This document shows positions 26,285-59,754 of a stretch of DNA of 64,000 bases, piece after piece; position 1 is the stretch's first letter; each line of letters starts with the position of its first letter. The notes under the pieces are model-generated. The model was not told the origin of the DNA. It was given only the letters and a program-made list of their open reading frames with translations, and did not search any database. The position numbers and the translations under genes were made by a program. Origin of the DNA: an uncultured Bacillales bacterium (GTDB lineage: Bacteria; Bacillota_I; Bacilli_A; RFN20; CAG-826); the NCBI GenBank assembly GCA_905197045.1, contig CAJJXG010000002.1, positions 1,312-65,311 of the forward strand, in the 5' to 3' direction.

Positions 26285-28489
26285 ATGAAAAAAATAGCTA
26301 TTTTACTTGCTTCACTTGGATTAATGCTTACTGGATGTTCTTCTCAAGAAGCATCTTTAGATGGAACACAAACTCCTCCAAGTAATGAGGAAAATAATAA
26401 CGAAAATAATAGCAGTGAAAATAATAAAGAAGAAAACAATGAAAGTAATTCGGGCGAAAATATTGATGATGGGAATAGTGATAAAGAAAACGATTCATCT
26501 GAAGATGATAACCTAAATAACGACGAAAGCGATGATAGTGAAGGTAATTTAGGCGATAATACTGAAGAAGGAAACGACGATAAAGAAAACGATTCAGAAA
26601 ACAATGAAACGGAAGAAAATCCACAAGATTTAGAAACCGAAAGAACGTTTTCTTTACACTTAAATTACAATAAAGATGGCTATATAATTACTGATTATTT
26701 TGAGGAATTAGAAAATGTAGTCATTCCTAATACTTATAAAGATTTACCGATTGTTGAAATTGATAATGAAGTTTTTGAATATGATGAGTATTTAAAAAGC
26801 ATTTCAATACCAAACACAGTAAGAAAAATAGGAGTAGAAGCTTTTTATTATTGTGAAAATCTTGAAAGTGTAAGCATTGAAGATAATAGTCCATTAACGA
26901 AAATCCGCTATAGAGCTTTTTCTAATTGCTCCAATCTTAAAACAGTTGATTTAGGTCAAAATCCAGCTTTAACTACTATTGAAGCTCGTGCATTTTACGA
27001 ATGTAAGTCCTTATCTGCTTTTTATCTTTCAGATAAAATTCTTTATGTTGGAGATTACGCTTTTGCATTATGCGACAATTTAAAAATTTACTCTACTTTT
27101 GCTGAGTCTCCAACTAATTGGGGCGTTTATTGGCACATTACTGATACTACTTATAAAATAAACAGCGAGCGCGTTGTTTGGGGTTATGCTGGAATTTGTG
27201 ATATTTATAATAATTTAGAGTATTGTGTAAGATTTGATGAAGAAAAGAATCAATTTATTGTTATAACTGATTATCATGGAACAGCGACTGATCTTTATTT
27301 GCCAGAATCAATTGTTGTTAATGAAGAAGAACTACAGGTTAAGGAAATACTTCAAGACGCTTTTACTAGCGAAGATTTTTTAGATTATATTTTCATCCCA
27401 AAAACCATCACAACAATTAGACGTGAAGGGATTTACGCTCATAAAAAAATTTTCTGTGAAGTAGCGTCAACACCGGATGGTTGGACTCCTGGTTGGTGTA
27501 GTTCAAATCTTGTTATCTGGAATTCATATTTTGCCATTCACGGTTACTCAAATGGTTTTTATTATTGTGTTGTAAAAGATGAAAGTGAAAACCCATATAT
27601 TGTAATTACTGAATTTGGCGAAGAACGTGAAATAATTGTGCCTGGATCATTAAATATTAATGGAGAGGATATTCCAATTAAGGTAATTGATAAAGAAGCA
27701 TATAAGCCAAATGAAATAGTAGAAACTATTATTTTGCCTCATACAATTACTTCAATCAAAGGTTCGCCTTTCTGGGGATTTGACGCTTTAACTACACTTT
27801 TTTTGCCAAATAGCGTAACCGAACTAAAATATGGCACCTTTAATGATTGTGTTAATGCAACTATATATACCGATTATAAATCGAGACCAAGTAATTGGCC
27901 TTCAGGTATTTATGGTGAATGCTTAGTAGTATACAGTTCATTTTTTGGAGTACATGGAAATTACAATGGTTTTAATTATGCAGTTTGTATCGATGATAAT
28001 AATGAAAAATATATAAATATTGTTACGTATGTAGGTATGGATAATGAAGTTGTTATTCCTGAATCTATAAATGTAGATGGTGAAGAGATTCCAGTAAAAT
28101 TAATTTATGGTAATGCTTTTCGAGAAGGTAACAATGAAATAACGTCAGTTTCTATACCAAGCAGTGTGACTAAGATCGGCTATCAGGCCTTTGTGAATTG
28201 TAAAAATTTAAAAGAGGTTGTTGTTAAAGGTGATAGTAATTTAAATATAATTGATAACAATGCTTTTTCATATTGCTCATCATTAGAAACTATATTTATA
28301 CCATCATCTGTAACTACTTTTGGGGTTGGTGTTTTCGATGATTGCATAAATCTTACAATTTACTGCGAAATATCAGAAAGCGAATCTACACGGGAATCTT
28401 ATTGGAATAGTAAATGTGATGTTGTTTGGGATACAACTTACGAAGAATACTTAGAAGTTATTAATAACGATGAAAGTTTAACAAAATAA
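26285..28489 (+). CDS. surface lipoprotein with acidic low-complexity linker and BspA-type leucine-rich repeats (LRR_5)
   Basis: Signal peptide plus lipobox LMLTGCSS. An E/N/D/S-rich region of about 90 aa follows, then repeated IPNTVRKIGVEAFYYCENLESVSI / FSNCSNLKTVDL / IPSSVTKIGYQAFVNCKNLKEV motifs. Confidence 0.85.
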   Translation: MKKIAILLASLGLMLTGCSSQEASLDGTQTPPSNEENNNENNSSENNKEENNESNSGENIDDGNSDKENDSSEDDNLNNDESDDSEGNLGDNTEEGNDDKENDSENNETEENPQDLETERTFSLHLNYNKDGYIITDYFEELENVVIPNTYKDLPIVEIDNEVFEYDEYLKSISIPNTVRKIGVEAFYYCENLESVSIEDNSPLTKIRYRAFSNCSNLKTVDLGQNPALTTIEARAFYECKSLSAFYLSDKILYVGDYAFALCDNLKIYSTFAESPTNWGVYWHITDTTYKINSERVVWGYAGICDIYNNLEYCVRFDEEKNQFIVITDYHGTATDLYLPESIVVNEEELQVKEILQDAFTSEDFLDYIFIPKTITTIRREGIYAHKKIFCEVASTPDGWTPGWCSSNLVIWNSYFAIHGYSNGFYYCVVKDESENPYIVITEFGEEREIIVPGSLNINGEDIPIKVIDKEAYKPNEIVETIILPHTITSIKGSPFWGFDALTTLFLPNSVTELKYGTFNDCVNATIYTDYKSRPSNWPSGIYGECLVVYSSFFGVHGNYNGFNYAVCIDDNNEKYINIVTYVGMDNEVVIPESINVDGEEIPVKLIYGNAFREGNNEITSVSIPSSVTKIGYQAFVNCKNLKEVVVKGDSNLNIIDNNAFSYCSSLETIFIPSSVTTFGVGVFDDCINLTIYCEISESESTRESYWNSKCDVVWDTTYEEYLEVINNDESLTK

Positions 28490-54282: not shown

Positions 54283-54291
54283 TTTTATTGA

Positions 54292-54315
54292 GCCCACCAA
54301 ATTGGTGGGCTTTTT
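54292..54315 (+). terminator. rho-independent terminator after the ABC operon
   Basis: GCCCACC-aaatt-GGTGGGC followed by TTTTT. Confidence 0.85.
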
Positions 54316-54507
54316 GATTCTATTCTAAAAAATAAGCATAAATGTAAAGAAAATGGTATTGAATGTAAAAATTAGGCAATAAGTTCAAAGCTTATTTAAT
54401 TTTGAATTTAAAAGGAGCATAATAATTATATGGACAACATGGATATATTTTTAACAAATAATTTTACAGAATATACCATTTCAATCTTATTTTTTATAAA
54501 ACAAGAG

Positions 54508-54579
54508 TCGCTTTGAGAGGTACCCAGTTTCCTAGACATTAGGAAAGGGGTACCTCTCACTTTAAGTAGCGATTTTTTT
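54508..54579 (+). terminator. long nested hairpin + T7 (terminator/attenuator-like) upstream of the surface-protein operon
   Basis: TCGCT..GAGAGGTACCC-ag-TTTCCTA-gacat-TAGGAAA-g-GGGTACCTCTC..AGCGA followed by TTTTTTT. It has 11 + 7 perfect base pairs plus a 5-bp outer helix. Confidence 0.6.
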
Positions 54580-54629
54580 ATTTTTAGATTATTTATTAAA
54601 GTTTTTGAATTCTAGGAGGGAAGAGACGA

Positions 54630-56759
54630 ATGAGAAATTCAAAAAAATTATTAATAGGCGTATTAAGTGTTGCAGCACTCATCGGTACAGGCTATGCAGC
54701 ATGGACAATTGGTGGCGTTTTTACTGATGCTACTAAAGAATTAAACCCAATCGTTGAAGAAACTATTGGTACTCGTGACATTGCTTTAGAAGTTTCTAAA
54801 GATGAAAACGATAATATTAAATTTGATAGTAAGGCTGATCTTAGTGTTACTTATAATGTTAAAGCAGTTAAAGCAGAAACAAATTTAATTGAAGGCTTTG
54901 ATCCTTATGATCTCAGTTACTATGAAAAAGTAGCTAAAGATTATCAACCAGATTTAACAGTTAGTGCTAGAGCTTTAGATAGTACAACTGGTAATCCTTT
55001 AGATCCAAGTGATGAATTCTTTAAAATTGTTAATCTTCCTAAAGAAGTAACTTATGAATATAAACAATGGTTAGCAGCGGATTATAAAGATAATGGATTC
55101 CCAGTTGAATTAGTCTTTACATGGGGCGATTTTACTGGTGGATTAAATCCTCAAGAATATCTTGATTCTCAACTAGCTTCAAAAACTCAAAAAGAACAAA
55201 GAGAATTCATTAAAGGTGTGATTGATAACTTAAAAGGCGTTAAATTTGAGTTTACTTTCAAGGTTGAAGGCGCTGTTATTGATGATCCTGAACCTGTTGA
55301 AGATACAACTGGTGAAGTTACTGCTCCAAGTGTTGCTGATTCAACTTTCTTAATTGACGGTCAAGCAATTAGTGGTAATTTAAAGGCTGGCGAACATCAA
55401 ATTACAATTACAACCGCAGATGGTAAAGTAGTTGAAGATAATAAGTTGATTGTTGTCGAAAATGGAGTTGATAAAGAAGTAACGTTAACTGATTCTTTAA
55501 CAAGAGCTGCCCATACATATACTGCAACTTATAATTTCTTAAAAGGTGCAACTTATTCATTTAAATATGATGTTGTTGATGAAGTGGTTGTTGAAGAACC
55601 TACTGTTTTTGAACAAGGTAAATTAGGTTTTTGGCAAGGTAATACTGGTGCTGCCTACTACTTTAATGGTGAGATGGTAAACAAGTATTATGGTGGTACT
55701 ACGAGTGATTTTGCTTCCGCTAAAGATTTAACTGTTTTAAAGACTCAAGATAATAAATATATAATTAAGATTGATGATACCAATCAGTATATAGGTGCAG
55801 TAAAAAGCGGAACTCACAATAACTTTGCAATTCTTGATACTGAATACCTCTGGAACTATAATGTTGAATATGATGCTTATACTACTATTCTTGGAGACGA
55901 TGAAGTATATTTAGGCACATATGGAACTTTTAATACTATTAGTCTTTCTAAAATGAATACAATTAAGAATAATTTTGTTGCACATATAACTGATGCTGAG
56001 ATTACTGCTCCTGAAGCTACAAATATCACTATTTCTGCTAATCCTACAACTATAAAAGTTGGTGGAACTACAGAATTAAATTATAAATTGTCTCCAACTG
56101 GTTCTCAAATTGATGGTGAAATTACTTACAAAGTTATCGGAACAAATGACGGTGTTGTTTCTCTTGAAGGAAATAAAGTAAAAGGACTTAAAGAAGGTTC
56201 TGTTCAAATCGAAGGTAAAATTGGAAAATTAACTAGTGATCCAATTACTATTAAGGTAATCACGGAAGATACTCCAGTTGGTAAGTCAGTTGTTTATGAA
56301 TATGCTCCAAGTTTTGATCCTAAAAATGGCAATTTTTCTGGATCTACTGTTTATAACGGAAGCAATGGACTTGATTTAGATTCAGCTTTAACAACTTTAA
56401 ATGCGACAATAAGCGAAGAAGACCCTACCCTTATTAACAAGGTAACAACAGCAAATAATCTTTATTGTGACAAAGCTGCTAATAGTGGTATAAAATTTTC
56501 AACTGGTTCTAAAGTTGGCGAGCTTGGTTTTACTACAGCGAGCCCAGTAATTAAAATTGACGTGACTTATATAGGCTGGAATGGCAAAAGCCCATCTCTT
56601 ACTGTAAATGATATACCTGAAGATGAACAAGAAGAAAAATACAGTGATGGTAAAACTGAAGAAACGCATACTTATGAATTTGCCGAACCTACAACTGAAT
56701 TTAAATTTACTGCCGTTGAGAGAATCCTCCTCACTAAACTCGTATTTTGGCTTGCTTAA
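54630..56759 (+). CDS. large secreted/surface protein with SipW-type (TasA-like) N-terminal signal and a Big_2 Ig-like domain
   Basis: 709 aa with an AGGAGGG RBS. The N-terminus is MRNSKKLLIGVLSVAALIGTGYAAWTIGGVF. The Big_2-like segment is ITISANPTTIKVGGTTELNYKLSP...VSLEGNKVKGLKEGSVQIEGKIG. Confidence 0.75.
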   Translation: MRNSKKLLIGVLSVAALIGTGYAAWTIGGVFTDATKELNPIVEETIGTRDIALEVSKDENDNIKFDSKADLSVTYNVKAVKAETNLIEGFDPYDLSYYEKVAKDYQPDLTVSARALDSTTGNPLDPSDEFFKIVNLPKEVTYEYKQWLAADYKDNGFPVELVFTWGDFTGGLNPQEYLDSQLASKTQKEQREFIKGVIDNLKGVKFEFTFKVEGAVIDDPEPVEDTTGEVTAPSVADSTFLIDGQAISGNLKAGEHQITITTADGKVVEDNKLIVVENGVDKEVTLTDSLTRAAHTYTATYNFLKGATYSFKYDVVDEVVVEEPTVFEQGKLGFWQGNTGAAYYFNGEMVNKYYGGTTSDFASAKDLTVLKTQDNKYIIKIDDTNQYIGAVKSGTHNNFAILDTEYLWNYNVEYDAYTTILGDDEVYLGTYGTFNTISLSKMNTIKNNFVAHITDAEITAPEATNITISANPTTIKVGGTTELNYKLSPTGSQIDGEITYKVIGTNDGVVSLEGNKVKGLKEGSVQIEGKIGKLTSDPITIKVITEDTPVGKSVVYEYAPSFDPKNGNFSGSTVYNGSNGLDLDSALTTLNATISEEDPTLINKVTTANNLYCDKAANSGIKFSTGSKVGELGFTTASPVIKIDVTYIGWNGKSPSLTVNDIPEDEQEEKYSDGKTEETHTYEFAEPTTEFKFTAVERILLTKLVFWLA

Positions 56760-56765
56760 TTTAAT

Positions 56766-56945
56766 ATGAAAAAAGCATTAATAGGTTTTCTCGTAATTGG
56801 CTTTTTAATCGGAACAGGAGCTTCTGCTTGGTATTTAACTACCAAGCAGACTTCTGTTAAAGAAGAATTGGAGCCAGAAGTAGGAGACTTTACTGAGAAA
56901 CTAGAAACTTTAGAAGTATTAGAAGAACTAGAAGAATTAGAATAA
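56766..56945 (+). CDS. 59-aa protein: same signal type + acidic Leu/Glu-repeat tail (not in ORF track)
   Basis: My translation is MKKALIGFLVIGFLIGTGASAWYLTTKQTSVKEELEPEVGDFTEKLETLEVLEELEELE, ending on TAA. It shares LIGTG-x-x-AW with the upstream protein and starts 6 nt after its stop. No clear SD was seen. Confidence 0.55.
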   Translation: MKKALIGFLVIGFLIGTGASAWYLTTKQTSVKEELEPEVGDFTEKLETLEVLEELEELE

Positions 56946-56986
56946 CTTAATATATTTAATATTTATTTGTAGGATTTATCTTTTTT

Positions 56987-57931
56987 ATGACAAGAGACGT
57001 TTTAATAATCGTATTATCTATTATTGCACTCACAATTATTTTTGTTGTGATTGTTTTGTTTGTTTCAATGAACTACACAAGTTTTAAAAATAAAATTATT
57101 AATAGAAAGTGCGATGAGTTATATAAAAAAGATTTATTAAAACAAAATAATGAATTTACATATATGGTGGTTAATCCAGAACTCAAAAATGGATTTGTTG
57201 ATGTAAATTCATATATTGGTTATGCAAGAACCAATAAAGATGCTAAAAAAGTTAAATTTAGACAATATTATTATTTAGAAACAGATCAAGAAAAAAGAAA
57301 AAAAGCTAAATCGAGAAAACGGAAAATTGTTTTAAGTGTTATTTTTTATATTCTTGCTATTGCTTTGATAGTTGTTGGTATTGTTAATAAGATTAACAAT
57401 AATCAAATAGTAATTGGCGATACAACTTATGTAACTATTGAAACGGGTAGCATGAGTTATGCAAACGAATCTAACACCTACTTAACCGAAAAAGATTTAA
57501 CTAATCAAATACCTGAAAAAAGTTTTATAGGGCTTAACAAAGTTAATAATCCCTCTTCTTTGAGACTATATGATGTTGCAGCTTATAAAAGTGAAAATGG
57601 TCAATTAATTGTCCATAGAATTATTGCTGAAAAAGTAATAAACGGCGAAAGATATTTCACTTTTAGAGGGGATGCTAATGAATTAAGTGACTATTATTTA
57701 GTTAGTGAAAATAGTGTACTTTATACTTTTAATGGTTATATCAATCAACCTCTTGGATATTTCTTTAGTTATTTAGCAAGTTATCAAAGTATGGTAGCTC
57801 TACTTTATGCAATTATTGCTTTAAGTGTTATAGATTATTACGACAAAAAGAAGAAGGATGTTTATTTTAAATATCTACCTGAAACTATTTATCGTCTTAA
57901 TCAAGAAGAATACTTAAAAGCTTTAAAGTAA
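56987..57931 (+). CDS. signal peptidase I, ER/archaeal (SipW, S26B)-like, with extended N-terminal membrane region
   Basis: 314 aa with ETGSMSY (Ser box), LIVHRII (His box) and FRGDANELSD (GDxN..D box). TM helices occur at the N-terminus, before the catalytic domain and near the C-terminus. Confidence 0.7.
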   Translation: MTRDVLIIVLSIIALTIIFVVIVLFVSMNYTSFKNKIINRKCDELYKKDLLKQNNEFTYMVVNPELKNGFVDVNSYIGYARTNKDAKKVKFRQYYYLETDQEKRKKAKSRKRKIVLSVIFYILAIALIVVGIVNKINNNQIVIGDTTYVTIETGSMSYANESNTYLTEKDLTNQIPEKSFIGLNKVNNPSSLRLYDVAAYKSENGQLIVHRIIAEKVINGERYFTFRGDANELSDYYLVSENSVLYTFNGYINQPLGYFFSYLASYQSMVALLYAIIALSVIDYYDKKKKDVYFKYLPETIYRLNQEEYLKALK

Positions 57932-58037: not shown

Positions 58038-58331
58038 ATGCAAAATAAATCTAAGTCACTTATTAGAAAATATAAAGAAAAAATTAATCTTGGTATTTCT
58101 TCTGGAATATTAGGATTAGTTTTTATTGTGATTTCTTTTTTCTTTATTCCTTTAATGAAAGAAGAAACCAGAAGATTTGGTGAAGACGTTATAATATATG
58201 ATTATTTTGCAATGACTATCTTTCATATCTTTATAGTTTTTGGCTTATTGCTTTTAATCTTAGGGATAGTTTTAGTAGTTTTATATTTTTTGAAGTTTAA
58301 GAAAGTTAATAGAAATGAAAATCAAAATTGA
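58038..58331 (+). CDS. small two-TM membrane protein
   Basis: 97 aa with two long hydrophobic helices and basic ends. Its 3' end overlaps the following ABC ATPase gene by 17 nt. Confidence 0.5.
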   Translation: MQNKSKSLIRKYKEKINLGISSGILGLVFIVISFFFIPLMKEETRRFGEDVIIYDYFAMTIFHIFIVFGLLLLILGIVLVVLYFLKFKKVNRNENQN

Positions 58332-59754
58332 GCATTTAGAAAAGATATATAAAGCTGAACCAAGTAAAAATATTGCTGAAACTATTGCAGTAAAAGATTT
58401 TAATCTTGACATTAACGATGGTGAACTTGTCGCTTTATTAGGTCCATCTGGTTGTGGAAAATCCACAACTTTATATATGATTAGCGGACTTATTGATCCA
58501 ACAAGTGGAAAAATATTTTTTGGTGAAGATGATGTAACAAAGCTAGCTAGTGAAAAAAGAAGCATTGGTTTTGTTTTTCAAAATTATGCATTATATCCTC
58601 ATATGAGCATTTTTAAAAACATCTCTTTTCCACTCACTAATTTAAAAATCAATTCCTATTTATATTCTTCTCAAATAGTTAATCTTTTAAAGATAAAGAA
58701 AATTATTGAGACTGATTTTGAAAGAGTGCTTGAACTAGTCGAAAAAGCCAAAGAGAATAACAAAGTTAATCGTTTTACTTTAGTTAATATTTTTAAAAAA
58801 GAATACAAACTTTCAAAAAGAGGAAGTGAAAGTTTATATTCTTTTCTTGTTAAAAATGATTTTAAAAAAGAAAAAATGCTCCTTTTTGTCGAAAAAAGAA
58901 TTAAACAATATAAAAAGATACTATCTATATTTAGAAAAAGAGTTGATGAAGAAGGATTTTTTCTTTCAATAAATGACGAAAGAATTAAAAGAATTAGAAA
59001 ATTATATAAAGATGAAATGGATGTTTTAGTTAATGATGTTGCTCGTATTGTTAAAATCGAGGATTATCTAGAAAGAAAACCAAGTGAATTAAGTGGTGGT
59101 CAACAACAAAGAGTAGCTATTGCTAGAGCGCTTGTTAAAAAACCAAAAGTTTTACTTTTAGATGAACCTTTGTCTAATCTTGATGCTCGTTTAAGAATAG
59201 AAACTCGAGAAGAAATTAGACGCATTCAAAAAGAAACAGGAATTACTACAATTTTTGTGACTCACGATCAAGATGAAGCTATGGCGATTGCTGATAAGAT
59301 GGTTGTTATGAGTATGGGTGAAATTCAACAAGTTGGTAAGCCTCAAGAAATTTATAAAAATCCTAAAAATTTATTTGTTGCAAAGTTTTTAGGAGTGCCT
59401 CCAATTAACTTATTTAAAGGCTACATTAAAAATAATCATTTATATATTGGAGATGAATTAATTAGCGAAAAAGAGATCAAAATAGAAGATAAAGAAGTAG
59501 TAATTGGAATTCGTCCTGAAGCTTATGAACTAGTTTCAAGTGATTCTAAAATTGGTTTAACTTTAAAAATGGATAAGATTTATAAGTCTGGAAGAGACCT
59601 TACTTTAATATCTATTTCTAAATTTGCATTAAATGAAATTAAACAAATTCTTGATAGTGATACAAAAGGAATTGAAAGCTTAAATAAATTCAAAATTAAC
59701 GAAGAACGATTATTCGTTTTTGATGCAAAAAGTGAAAAAAGAATTGAGTTTTAA
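58315..59754 (+). CDS. sugar-type ABC ATP-binding protein paralog (MsmK-like, with insertion), no adjacent permease
   Basis: 479 aa with the same motifs as 49167..50621, including GPSGCGKST, LSGGQQQRVAIARAL and VTHDQDEAM. A 32-nt run at 59206-59237 is identical to 50055-50086. Confidence 0.88.
   Translation: MKIKIEHLEKIYKAEPSKNIAETIAVKDFNLDINDGELVALLGPSGCGKSTTLYMISGLIDPTSGKIFFGEDDVTKLASEKRSIGFVFQNYALYPHMSIFKNISFPLTNLKINSYLYSSQIVNLLKIKKIIETDFERVLELVEKAKENNKVNRFTLVNIFKKEYKLSKRGSESLYSFLVKNDFKKEKMLLFVEKRIKQYKKILSIFRKRVDEEGFFLSINDERIKRIRKLYKDEMDVLVNDVARIVKIEDYLERKPSELSGGQQQRVAIARALVKKPKVLLLDEPLSNLDARLRIETREEIRRIQKETGITTIFVTHDQDEAMAIADKMVVMSMGEIQQVGKPQEIYKNPKNLFVAKFLGVPPINLFKGYIKNNHLYIGDELISEKEIKIEDKEVVIGIRPEAYELVSSDSKIGLTLKMDKIYKSGRDLTLISISKFALNEIKQILDSDTKGIESLNKFKINEERLFVFDAKSEKRIEF

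Follow-up and report, generated by a model that had tools for sequence, protein, structure and literature searches.

Does a gut bacterium with a reduced genome keep a signal peptidase for the exported proteins that are encoded next to it? This question is raised by three consecutive genes (54630-57931) in a 64-kb stretch of DNA from an uncultured Bacillales bacterium, which is called the window here and belongs to a metagenomic scaffold of 129 kb. The genes lie on the plus strand and encode a protein of 709 amino acids (the large cargo protein), a protein of 59 amino acids (the mini-protein) and a protein of 314 amino acids (the peptidase). An earlier reading of the bare sequence, referred to as the original prediction, had placed three same-strand open reading frames (ORFs) at these positions and compared them with the tapA-sipW-tasA operon of Bacillus; the ORF list of the window and the public gene calls of the source contig both contain them. 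The favoured explanation, to which a probability of about 0.62 is assigned, is that the three genes form one operon, which encodes a dedicated SipW-like signal peptidase of the S26B type together with two of its substrates.

A predicted S26B signal peptidase

Judged by its sequence, the product of the third gene is a signal peptidase of the S26B type, i.e., the endoplasmic reticulum (ER)/archaeal type with serine and histidine in the catalytic site, and not an S26A peptidase such as LepB. Searches against NCBIfam matched only TIGR02228 (40.5 bits, E 2.3e-10, cut-off 51.85) and the SipW model NF046067 (36.5 bits, E 3.4e-9, cut-off 190), and none of the S26A models. When PDB sequences were searched with the profile of the peptidase family, only human SEC11A and SEC11C were matched (E ~3e-4), and the alignment with SEC11 falls on the catalytic boxes: GSM (residues 154-156) is found opposite GSME, VHRI (209-212) opposite IVHRV, and GDxN..D, which reads GDANELSD here (228-235), opposite KGDNN..DD. 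The Ser/His signature named by the original prediction is therefore confirmed, and the refuting outcome named there, a score as an ordinary LepB, did not occur, with no S26A family or structure among the sequence matches. S155, M156, H210, R211, G228, D229, N231 and S234 are invariant in 14 homologues with identities down to 29%; in the same set, G154 and A230 are kept in at least 90%, and D235 is lost in two, the most distant ones. Peptidases of the same subfamily from the loci L036 and L037 exceed the cut-off of TIGR02228 across the whole model (73.1 and 65.8 bits), and that of locus L009 reaches 50.9 bits. Since the L036 and L037 enzymes pass, the window protein is regarded as a divergent member, which is tied to the family via intermediates.

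The AlphaFold2 (AF2) model of the peptidase, with a predicted local distance difference test score (pLDDT) of 80, starts with a long N-terminal helix (TM1), which is followed by a small alpha/beta cytoplasmic domain, a second transmembrane segment (TM2), a beta-rich catalytic domain, a C-terminal transmembrane segment and a further helix. Foldseek searches with this model returned the C-terminal domain of lambda cI, SpsB and SEC11A/C with probabilities of 0.99-1.0 and weak E-values of 2e-3 to 6e-2, and SEC11A/C, at such weak E-values, gave a TMt of 0.56-0.57 over 168 columns. The extra N-terminal transmembrane segment and Lys-rich extension described in the original prediction are real and conserved in the homologues: the segment and the basic loop behind it are kept across the whole subfamily, as is an insertion of around 15 residues after the catalytic serine (...GSMxxxNxxNxYLxxNxLxNQI...). 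A homologue search yielded 28 relatives of the peptidase, all of which are unnamed or annotated as 'hypothetical protein [Mollicutes bacterium]'. Peptidases of 545-549 amino acids with an acidic/basic cytoplasmic C-terminal extension of around 250 amino acids are encoded at two loci (L032 and L034, Table 1).

A shared signal beside the peptidase

Both proteins encoded upstream of the peptidase start with a Lys-rich n-region and a hydrophobic core followed by G-x-G-x-[AS]-[AS]-W, and the motif reads LIGTGYAAW in the large cargo protein and LIGTGASAW in the mini-protein. In a six-frame scan of the 64 kb, L-I-G-T-G-x-x-A-W was found at just these two N-termini, which bears out the shared motif as it had been described, and a looser version of the pattern was found in 2 of the 175 ORFs of the window. 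A comparison of 69 homologues revealed that the first 25 residues are the best-conserved part of the large protein, with 11 invariant positions and a mean pairwise identity of 76%; residues 26-220 have 17 invariant positions out of 195 and an identity of 40%. A signal that is more conserved than the mature part is the reverse of what is seen for generic signal peptides and is typical of signals which are read by a private processing enzyme.

The link between signal and peptidase was also found beyond the window. When one genome per species was scanned, 27 loci that encode the peptidase subfamily were found, which derive from metagenome-assembled genomes labelled Mollicutes, Bacilli, Ca. Onthovivens or Ca. 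Scatoplasma and from a few evidently mis-binned contigs. An ORF was scored as motif-bearing if its hydrophobic N-terminus ended in G-x-G-x-[ASG]-x-[WFY], and as near if it was located on the same strand and at most 1.5 kb from the peptidase gene. The motif is present in 37 of the 142 near ORFs, whereas just 6 of the 823 other ORFs have it (Fisher p = 6e-27); a motif-bearing ORF exists in this vicinity at 22 of the 27 loci. No motif-bearing ORF was seen on the opposite strand or more than 3.6 kb from the peptidase in these loci.

Going by the sequence, cleavage would occur after A23 in the large protein (GYA before the cut, AW after it) and after S20 in the mini-protein (GAS before, AW after). 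These predicted sites fit the -3/-1 rule, the glycine at position -3 is invariant, and an aromatic residue occupies P2' in both proteins and also P2 in the large one. The signal of TasA is refractory to LepB owing to its aromatic P2 and P2' residues (PMC10269814). The resemblance to the SipW-dependent TasA signal, on which the original prediction had been built, receives some backing in one respect and fails in another. In profile-profile alignments with hhalign, for which a 30-sequence TasA alignment served as reference, the wider cargo family aligned over the signal and around 30 following residues (E 2.2e-5, probability 76%) and the close cargo family with an E-value of 3.6e-4 and a probability of 37%, figures that have to be read with the inflation of scores by short hydrophobic segments in mind. 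The alignment is in register, with GFA-AW (GYA-AW in the window protein) opposite TWA-AF of TasA. What fails is the match to TIGR04088, the NCBIfam model of SipW-cognate signals, which the original prediction had itself named among its refuting conditions and which is discussed below; the other NCBIfam models did not match the two N-termini or the distant cargo proteins either. A type IV pilin (class III) signal was considered and rejected, as there is no G-F-type site ahead of the hydrophobic core.

Gene order in relatives and transcription

In close relatives, whose peptidases are 40-55% identical, a gene for a large protein (760-1040 amino acids), a mini-gene (47-70 amino acids) and the peptidase gene follow each other in a fixed order, and locus L006 contains two large paralogues. 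The original prediction had called for a survey of co-occurrence, and the three genes were found together in all relatives whose flanking DNA was long enough. More distant relatives carry a cargo gene for around 250-295 amino acids, the peptidase gene and a cargo gene for around 208 amino acids, which is the order of tapA-sipW-tasA. In Erysipelotrichaceae-like contigs (L036 and L037), three to four cargo genes of the same family as that of the window (216, 234, 936 and 238 amino acids) are followed by the peptidase gene and a gene for a polytopic membrane protein of around 600 amino acids, which may be an assembly or export component. A histidine kinase and a response regulator are encoded directly upstream of the L037 operon, as in the bsa operon of Clostridium perfringens. 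Several genomes possess both a locus of the large-plus-mini type and one of the cargo-peptidase-cargo type, and two paralogous peptidases per genome, each with its own flanking cargo, were found for the locus pairs L009 and L030, L018 and L025, and L013 and L022. A low-GC, Bacilli-type cargo-peptidase-cargo operon is also present in bins titled Sodaliphilus, Bacteroides uniformis, Prevotella, Faecalibacterium and Lachnospiraceae 'cleanbin' (L023, L024, L026, L027 and L029); these contigs are probably mis-binned.

Several features of the window suggest that the three genes are transcribed together. An intrinsic-terminator-like hairpin closes the preceding gene, which encodes a sugar-binding lipoprotein, and the three-gene unit therefore begins a new transcript. 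The large gene is preceded by a Shine-Dalgarno (SD) sequence, the start codon of the mini-gene lies 6 nt past the stop codon of the large gene without an SD of its own, and the peptidase gene, whose SD is weak and distant, begins 41 nt after the mini-gene. The upstream terminator, the SD of the large gene and the tight spacing therefore make the three genes look like one operon. A very stable leader hairpin is located around 50 nt 5' of the large gene's start codon, and a short palindrome that corresponds to its outer stem (TCGCTTT...AGCGATTTTT), namely AAAATCGCTTTT/AAAAGCGATTTT, is kept 5' of the large gene in related loci. The leader region matched no family in Rfam; the hairpin may function as an attenuator or operator.

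On the 3' side of the peptidase gene, a protein of 97 amino acids with two transmembrane segments is encoded (58038-58331), whose gene overlaps by 17 nt with the start of a gene for an MsmK-like ATP-binding cassette (ABC) ATPase (58315-59754). A small membrane protein (78 amino acids) is also encoded 3' of the peptidase in L004, and it is not kept in L002.

The large cargo protein

The N-terminal part of the large protein belongs to a sizeable family. When residues 1-220 were used for an exhaustive profile search, 399 representative clusters (50% identity) were retrieved at E<=1e-3, many of which are stand-alone secreted proteins of 200-260 amino acids that are matched end to end; where members are named at all, they are labelled 'hypothetical protein'. 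A first small set of distant cargo proteins gave an E-value of 0.015 in hhalign when only the mature part was compared with the N-terminal domain, and the later comparison with the wider family of stand-alone proteins gave 99.7% probability and an E-value of 4.5e-27 over the full length. Pfam contains no family that matches the N-terminal domain or 57 of the stand-alone relatives, and the only Pfam match of the cargo is a Big_2 domain, which passes marginally (23.7 bits, cut-off 22.8); the Big_2-containing protein of the original prediction is thus upheld, if narrowly. Searches of PDB sequences with cargo profiles returned nothing meaningful, the best matches being RpoD and BamC at E>0.1.

The AF2 model of residues 1-345 (mean pLDDT 74) starts with a disordered stretch (residues 1-40), after which come a beta-rich domain containing two helices (residues 41-214) and a confidently predicted Ig-like sandwich (residues 225-320). 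The original prediction had suggested comparing the N-terminal domain with the TasA/camelysin fold, and this likeness was not found. Neither PF12389 nor NF046066 matched the 709-amino acid protein, and PF12389 matched none of the 57 stand-alone relatives; a Foldseek search of the PDB with the two-domain model gave no match at E<1e-3 and neither TasA (5OF1/8AUR) nor AbpA (7UEG) among the top 50; and the hhalign likeness to TasA is confined to the signal and at most around 30 residues behind it. The matches that Foldseek did return are generic beta-sandwiches (sulfite oxidase, titin, PitB).

Strains of the same species-level population differ unevenly along the protein: residues 1-300 are 87-96% identical, and identity falls to 44-63% in residues 351-450 and 551-700. 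The identity of the peptidase within the same population is 95-97%. The combination of a conserved base and a hypervariable, Big_2-containing head suggests an exposed adhesin or antigen. The large protein has no lipobox, LPXTG motif or C-terminal transmembrane segment. Some strains of the population encode a large protein of 936-941 amino acids or a truncated one of 484-488 amino acids.

The mini-gene and its RNA hairpin

All loci of the close clade have the mini-gene, with the large gene on one side of it and the peptidase gene on the other. In relatives, M1, K2, K3, G16, G18 and W22 of its product are invariant. The acidic LE-repeat peptide of the original prediction is real in the lineage of the window strain; the repeat itself is not conserved, and in relatives the tail is PE-rich, N/T-rich or very short. 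In three of seven loci (p 0.0015-0.012), the mature mini-protein starts with a sequence that is similar, in register, to the one with which its cognate mature large protein begins, and this likeness is suggestive of the mini-protein being a copy of the mature N-terminus of the large protein.

A perfect hairpin is encoded within the mini-gene, which begins at the codons of the predicted cleavage site and is built from rare GC-ending codons. It was found in six of nine loci, with z-scores of -5.6 in the window and -6.5 to -7.8 in the five others, and a seventh locus has a z-score of -3.3; across lineages, it is formed by three different sequences. No such hairpin is present at the equivalent position of 10 large genes and 16 stand-alone cargo genes, and Rfam contains no match for it. 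It lies around 130 nt 5' of the SD of the peptidase gene and does not pair with this SD in the predicted fold. An intrinsic terminator was ruled out, as no U-run follows the hairpin. It is probably an intra-operon stability, processing or attenuation element, which would set the ratio of cargo to peptidase.

Table 1. Positions of the features discussed, in the window unless a locus is named.
Feature	Position	Strand	Details
Intrinsic-terminator-like hairpin with T-run	54290..54312	+	10-bp stem, 6 GC pairs, then TTTTGATT
Leader hairpin with U-run	54503..54577	+	free energy (dG) -38.9 kcal/mol, z -6.4
SD of large gene, AGGAGG	54614..54619	+	10 nt ahead of ATG
Large cargo gene, 709 aa (amino acids)	54630..56759	+	69 homologues, all unnamed or 'Ig-like domain-containing'
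Predicted cognate signal of large cargo, residues 1-23	54630..54698	+	MRNSKKLLIGVLSVAALIGTGYA; predicted cut between GYA and AW; conservation, TasA register
N-terminal cargo domain, residues 24-215	54699..55274	+	unannotated family; AF2 pLDDT ~80
Second domain, residues 225-320, predicted all-beta Ig-like sandwich	55302..55589	+	pLDDT 87-95; generic beta-sandwich matches only
Strain-hypervariable C-terminal half, residues 330-700	55617..56729	+	within-population identity
Big_2 domain, residues 463-529	56016-56216	+	Pfam
Mini-cargo gene, 59 aa	56766..56945	+	signal residues 1-20, ~20 semi-conserved residues (..EP.VGDF), variable acidic tail
Stem-loop in mini-gene	56823..56850	+	TCTGCTTGGTA-TTTAAC-TACCAAGCAGA; perfect 11-bp hairpin, codons 20-29
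Peptidase gene, S26B (SipW/SEC11/archaeal-type) signal peptidase I, 314 aa	56987..57931	+	family models, alignment, AF2
Peptidase TM1	56999-57067	+
Peptidase basic cytoplasmic loop/domain	57068-57325	+
Peptidase TM2	57326-57394	+
Peptidase catalytic domain	57395-57751	+
Codon of predicted nucleophile Ser155 (GSM box)	57449..57451	+	aligned with SEC11 GSME box
Codon of predicted general base His210 (VHRI box)	57614..57616	+	S26A would have Lys
Codon of Asp229 (FRGDAN box)	57671..57673	+	third conserved S26B catalytic-site residue
Peptidase C-terminal transmembrane segment and basic helical tail	57752-57931	+
Palindrome 5' of large gene in other loci	L002 372-397; L004 5286-5312; L009 5285-5309; L011 2806-2848
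Mini-gene hairpin in other loci	L003 1051-1092; L009 7837-7878; L010 2746-2787; L011 5435-5476; L019 2426-2467; L015 2865-2906
Erysipelotrichaceae-like operons	L036 6001-12651; L037 3661-11781		further unannotated genes after membrane protein
Peptidases with C-terminal extension	L032 3794-5431; L034 7731-9380

Favoured mechanism and rival explanations

If the favoured explanation is correct, both substrates would be exported by the Sec pathway with the help of a specialised signal, in which a K-rich n-region is followed by a hydrophobic core, by G-x-G-[aromatic or small]-[A/S] before the cut and by [A/S]-W after it. The peptidase, with Ser155, His210 and Asp229 in its active site and its catalytic domain outside the membrane, would cut between the two small residues, thereby producing mature N-termini that start with A-W. 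Since both signals have an aromatic residue at P2' and that of the large protein has one at P2 as well, LepB would process them poorly, as is the case for TasA, which would account for the linkage of a private peptidase to its substrates. The large substrate would combine a conserved N-terminal module of around 200 residues with an Ig-like domain and a hypervariable, Big_2-containing half and is a probable adhesin; in related Bacilli, the same module occurs as two to four stand-alone proteins of around 220 amino acids, which are encoded on either side of the same peptidase in an order like that of tapA-sipW-tasA. By analogy with TasA (PMC9674648), TapA (PMC10151520) and BsaA (PMC7395162, PMC11580942), the large protein would remain tethered to the membrane by its signal until it is cut. 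The disordered segment past the cut site could then pair with other subunits in a donor-strand-like manner, thereby giving rise to a surface-attached structure or matrix, whose distal variable domains would bind targets. The 59-amino acid protein, which comprises just the signal and this N-terminal segment, is probably a partner (cap or primer) or a regulator.

A number of results weigh against this explanation. TIGR04088, which has a cut-off of 19 bits and gave 42.7 bits with the TasA control, matched neither of the two N-termini at E<=10, nor any of six further cargo proteins, taken from related loci and scanned at the same threshold, and the hhalign comparison, which does connect the signals, can overstate significance on short hydrophobic signal regions. 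The peptidase of the window remains below the curated TIGR02228 cut-off (40.5 versus 51.85 bits), and the Foldseek E-values obtained with its model (2e-3 to 6e-2) are weak. At family level, the mature mini-protein and the mature large protein show no significant likeness in hhalign (E 0.77), and it is only for the three of seven cognate pairs that the likeness is significant. Polymerisation into a fibre or matrix is argued by analogy only, because the mature cargo has no sequence or fold link to TasA, camelysin, BsaA or AbpA. Two indirect hints at it are the disorder of residues 1-40 in the AF2 model and the several paralogous subunits that are encoded per operon in relatives. Finally, the data do not tell a dedicated signal peptidase from the only signal peptidase of the genome.

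This last point leads to the reading, judged rather improbable, that the enzyme is the general and perhaps sole type I signal peptidase of the organism, which, in a secretome dominated by lipoproteins, has very few substrates that merely happen to be encoded beside it, and that the motif is simply the ordinary Sec cleavage region of the lineage. Many Mollicutes with reduced genomes lack LepB, the other exported proteins seen in the window are all lipoproteins, the motif obeys the ordinary -3/-1 rule for small residues, and TIGR04088 gives it no score, all of which would agree with a housekeeping function. However, several genomes encode two paralogous peptidases, each beside its own cargo genes, sequence conservation is far higher in the signal than in the mature protein, as is seldom seen with generic signals, and the motif is tightly clustered beside the peptidase gene, on its strand and within 3.6 kb in the sampled loci. 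It is also conceivable, though on balance unlikely, that the 59-codon ORF is a regulatory leader or a monitoring substrate comparable to MifM, SecM or VemP, which tunes the expression of the peptidase together with the hairpin, or that the hairpin acts by itself as an intra-operon stability or processing element. The ORF is located directly 5' of a gene for a secretion factor and bears the cognate signal of that factor, the conserved hairpin is specific to the mini-ORF (six of nine loci, z -5.6 to -7.8), the tail is variable and acidic, and the SD of the peptidase gene is weak and distant. The hairpin does not, however, sequester this SD in the predicted fold, from which it is around 130 nt away, as would be expected by comparison with MifM, SecM and VemP; no arrest motif could be identified in the mini-ORF, its tail is not conserved, and the loci L014 and L017 have no hairpin. 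Moreover, such a regulatory function would be compatible with the favoured explanation rather than exclusive of it.

Two further readings concern the function of the peptidase homologue itself. It could be a non-proteolytic assembly chaperone like streptococcal SipA/LepA, with the N-terminal segments serving as uncleaved membrane anchors, which is considered very improbable. A cleaved large protein would have no other anchor, and a possibly wall-less organism would need to retain it; furthermore, PitB of Streptococcus pneumoniae, whose PI-2 pilus islet encodes SipA, is among the weak Foldseek matches. SipA-type chaperones, however, have lost their catalytic residues, whereas Ser, His and Asp are invariant across the subfamily described here, and the PitB matches are not significant (E ~0.013, TM-score 0.14). 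It is scarcely credible that the small acidic peptide is the precursor of a ribosomally synthesised and post-translationally modified peptide (RiPP) or of a bacteriocin-like product, and that the S26B homologue acts as its leader peptidase, as in the SpI-dependent linear polyphosphorylated peptides. The substrate is indeed small and acidic, and SipW-like peptidases are known to remove RiPP leaders in Bacillota (PMC13381572). However, the same signal is found on proteins of 709 and around 220 amino acids, the leader has the features of a classic Sec signal, and the tail of the peptide is not conserved. This reading was rejected, as no RiPP recognition element (RRE), kinase, cyclase or other modifying enzyme is encoded in the neighbourhood.

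Comparison with known systems

The closest parallel to the favoured explanation is the tapA-sipW-tasA operon of B. subtilis, in which the gene of a Ser/His peptidase of the ER/archaeal type is likewise accompanied by those of two exported proteins with a special signal in common. In the profile alignments, the signal cores fall in register (G-T-W-A before and A-F after the cut in TasA, T-G-Y-A and A-W here) with aromatic P2 and P2' residues, both systems have one major and one minor substrate, and distant relatives of the window locus have the identical cargo-peptidase-cargo order. In contrast to SipW, the peptidase has an extra N-terminal transmembrane segment, a basic cytoplasmic domain of around 85 amino acids and the insertion of around 15 amino acids after the catalytic serine, and it reaches 36.5 of the 190 bits required by the SipW model. 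Its putative substrates differ as well: their signals fail TIGR04088, which describes those of TasA and TapA, the cargo belongs to another, unannotated family without PF12389 or a detected jelly-roll likeness, the large cargo has 709 amino acids with Ig-like domains and a hypervariable half, and the minor partner has 59 amino acids compared to 253 in TapA.

The sipW-bsaABCRSD locus of C. perfringens also combines SipW with secreted proteins of differing size, namely a polymerising subunit of around 23 kDa and the large, domain-bearing BsaC (PMC7395162, PMC11580942). As in BsaA, a disordered N-terminal segment follows the signal here; the segment of BsaA is disordered and was proposed to be a donor strand (PMC11580942). 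A linked two-component system is a further likeness, which was seen in locus L037. However, the cargo described here is not detectably homologous to either BsaA or TasA, the neighbourhood contains no type IV pilus genes, and the host is, unlike C. perfringens, a bacterium with a reduced genome that is possibly wall-less.

With SEC11 and the archaeal signal peptidase I (MEROPS S26B), the peptidase shares the GSM, HR and GDxN..D boxes; SEC11 is its best and sole sequence match in the PDB and is also among the weak fold matches (TMt 0.56-0.57), and a C-terminal transmembrane segment is common to the window peptidase, SipW and the archaeal enzymes. Unlike SEC11 and its archaeal counterparts, it is bacterial, linked in an operon to specific substrates, equipped with the N-terminal transmembrane segment, the cytoplasmic domain and the insertion behind the serine, and below the family cut-off. 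The FCT and PI-2 islands of streptococci are comparable in that a protein of the signal peptidase family, SipA/LepA, is encoded beside surface fibre subunits and an adhesin, to which the cargo would correspond here. These pilus chaperones are derived from S26A, are catalytically dead and act with sortases and LPXTG pilins; the peptidase described here, in contrast, has intact catalytic residues, and neither sortase nor LPXTG motif is present. SpI of the linear polyphosphorylated peptide (LPP) clusters is a SipW homologue dedicated to a co-encoded small peptide (PMC13381572), as is proposed here, but the window locus has no RRE or modifying enzymes, its signals are of the Sec type, and large proteins are among its predicted substrates.

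The principle of a private SipW is already known for TasA and TapA and for BsaA, and families of SipW-cognate signals are represented in NCBIfam. New are the architecture of the peptidase subfamily, the unannotated cargo family, the arrangement of a large and a mini-gene with its hairpin, and the lineage. A literature search (RF39 signal peptidase; SipW in Mollicutes, Erysipelotrichaceae and Tenericutes) found no earlier description of such a system.

Implications

The host was described as apparently wall-less and lipoprotein-rich in the original prediction. Five lipobox proteins are encoded in the window (gene starts at 26285, 34193, 52630, 59937 and 61460), which fits the second attribute; among them are a sugar-binding protein, a lipoprotein nuclease (Endonuclease_1) and a Metallophos/5'-nucleotidase of 954 amino acids. 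This set fits a nucleic-acid-scavenging organism with a lipoprotein-dominated secretome. With regard to the cell wall, most members of the related uncultured order RF39 are predicted to be walled, and some families of RFN20 to be peptidoglycan-deficient (PMC10868615).

In its furthest extension, which is put forward with considerable doubt, the locus would represent an undescribed Sec-dependent and sortase-independent surface-fibre or adhesin system of gut Bacilli with reduced genomes (RFN20/RF39/Erysipelotrichales-like, some of them possibly wall-less). A new subunit fold of around 200 residues would be polymerised after the cut by a specialised S26B peptidase with a cytoplasmic domain of its own, the protein with the hypervariable head would be the tip or adhesin version in this lineage, the mini-protein would be a strand-only subunit that caps, primes or anchors the structure, and expression would be balanced by the hairpin. 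If the cargo does polymerise, it would be a new fold of fibre subunits and a way of displaying adhesins for cells with little or no wall.

The SipW/TasA principle would reach uncultured gut Bacilli with reduced genomes, whose proteins are annotated as 'hypothetical protein' so far. The analysis defines two groups, a sizeable unannotated family of secreted proteins (clustered at 50% identity, around 400 clusters) and a separate subfamily of S26B peptidases that possess a cytoplasmic domain. The sites with aromatic P2 and P2' residues provide natural examples for the question of LepB resistance and are of relevance for the design of signal-peptidase inhibitors. The large protein, finally, with its conserved base and its head that varies between strains, is a promising candidate for an adhesin that faces the host or phages, in organisms that are abundant in the guts of animals and humans.

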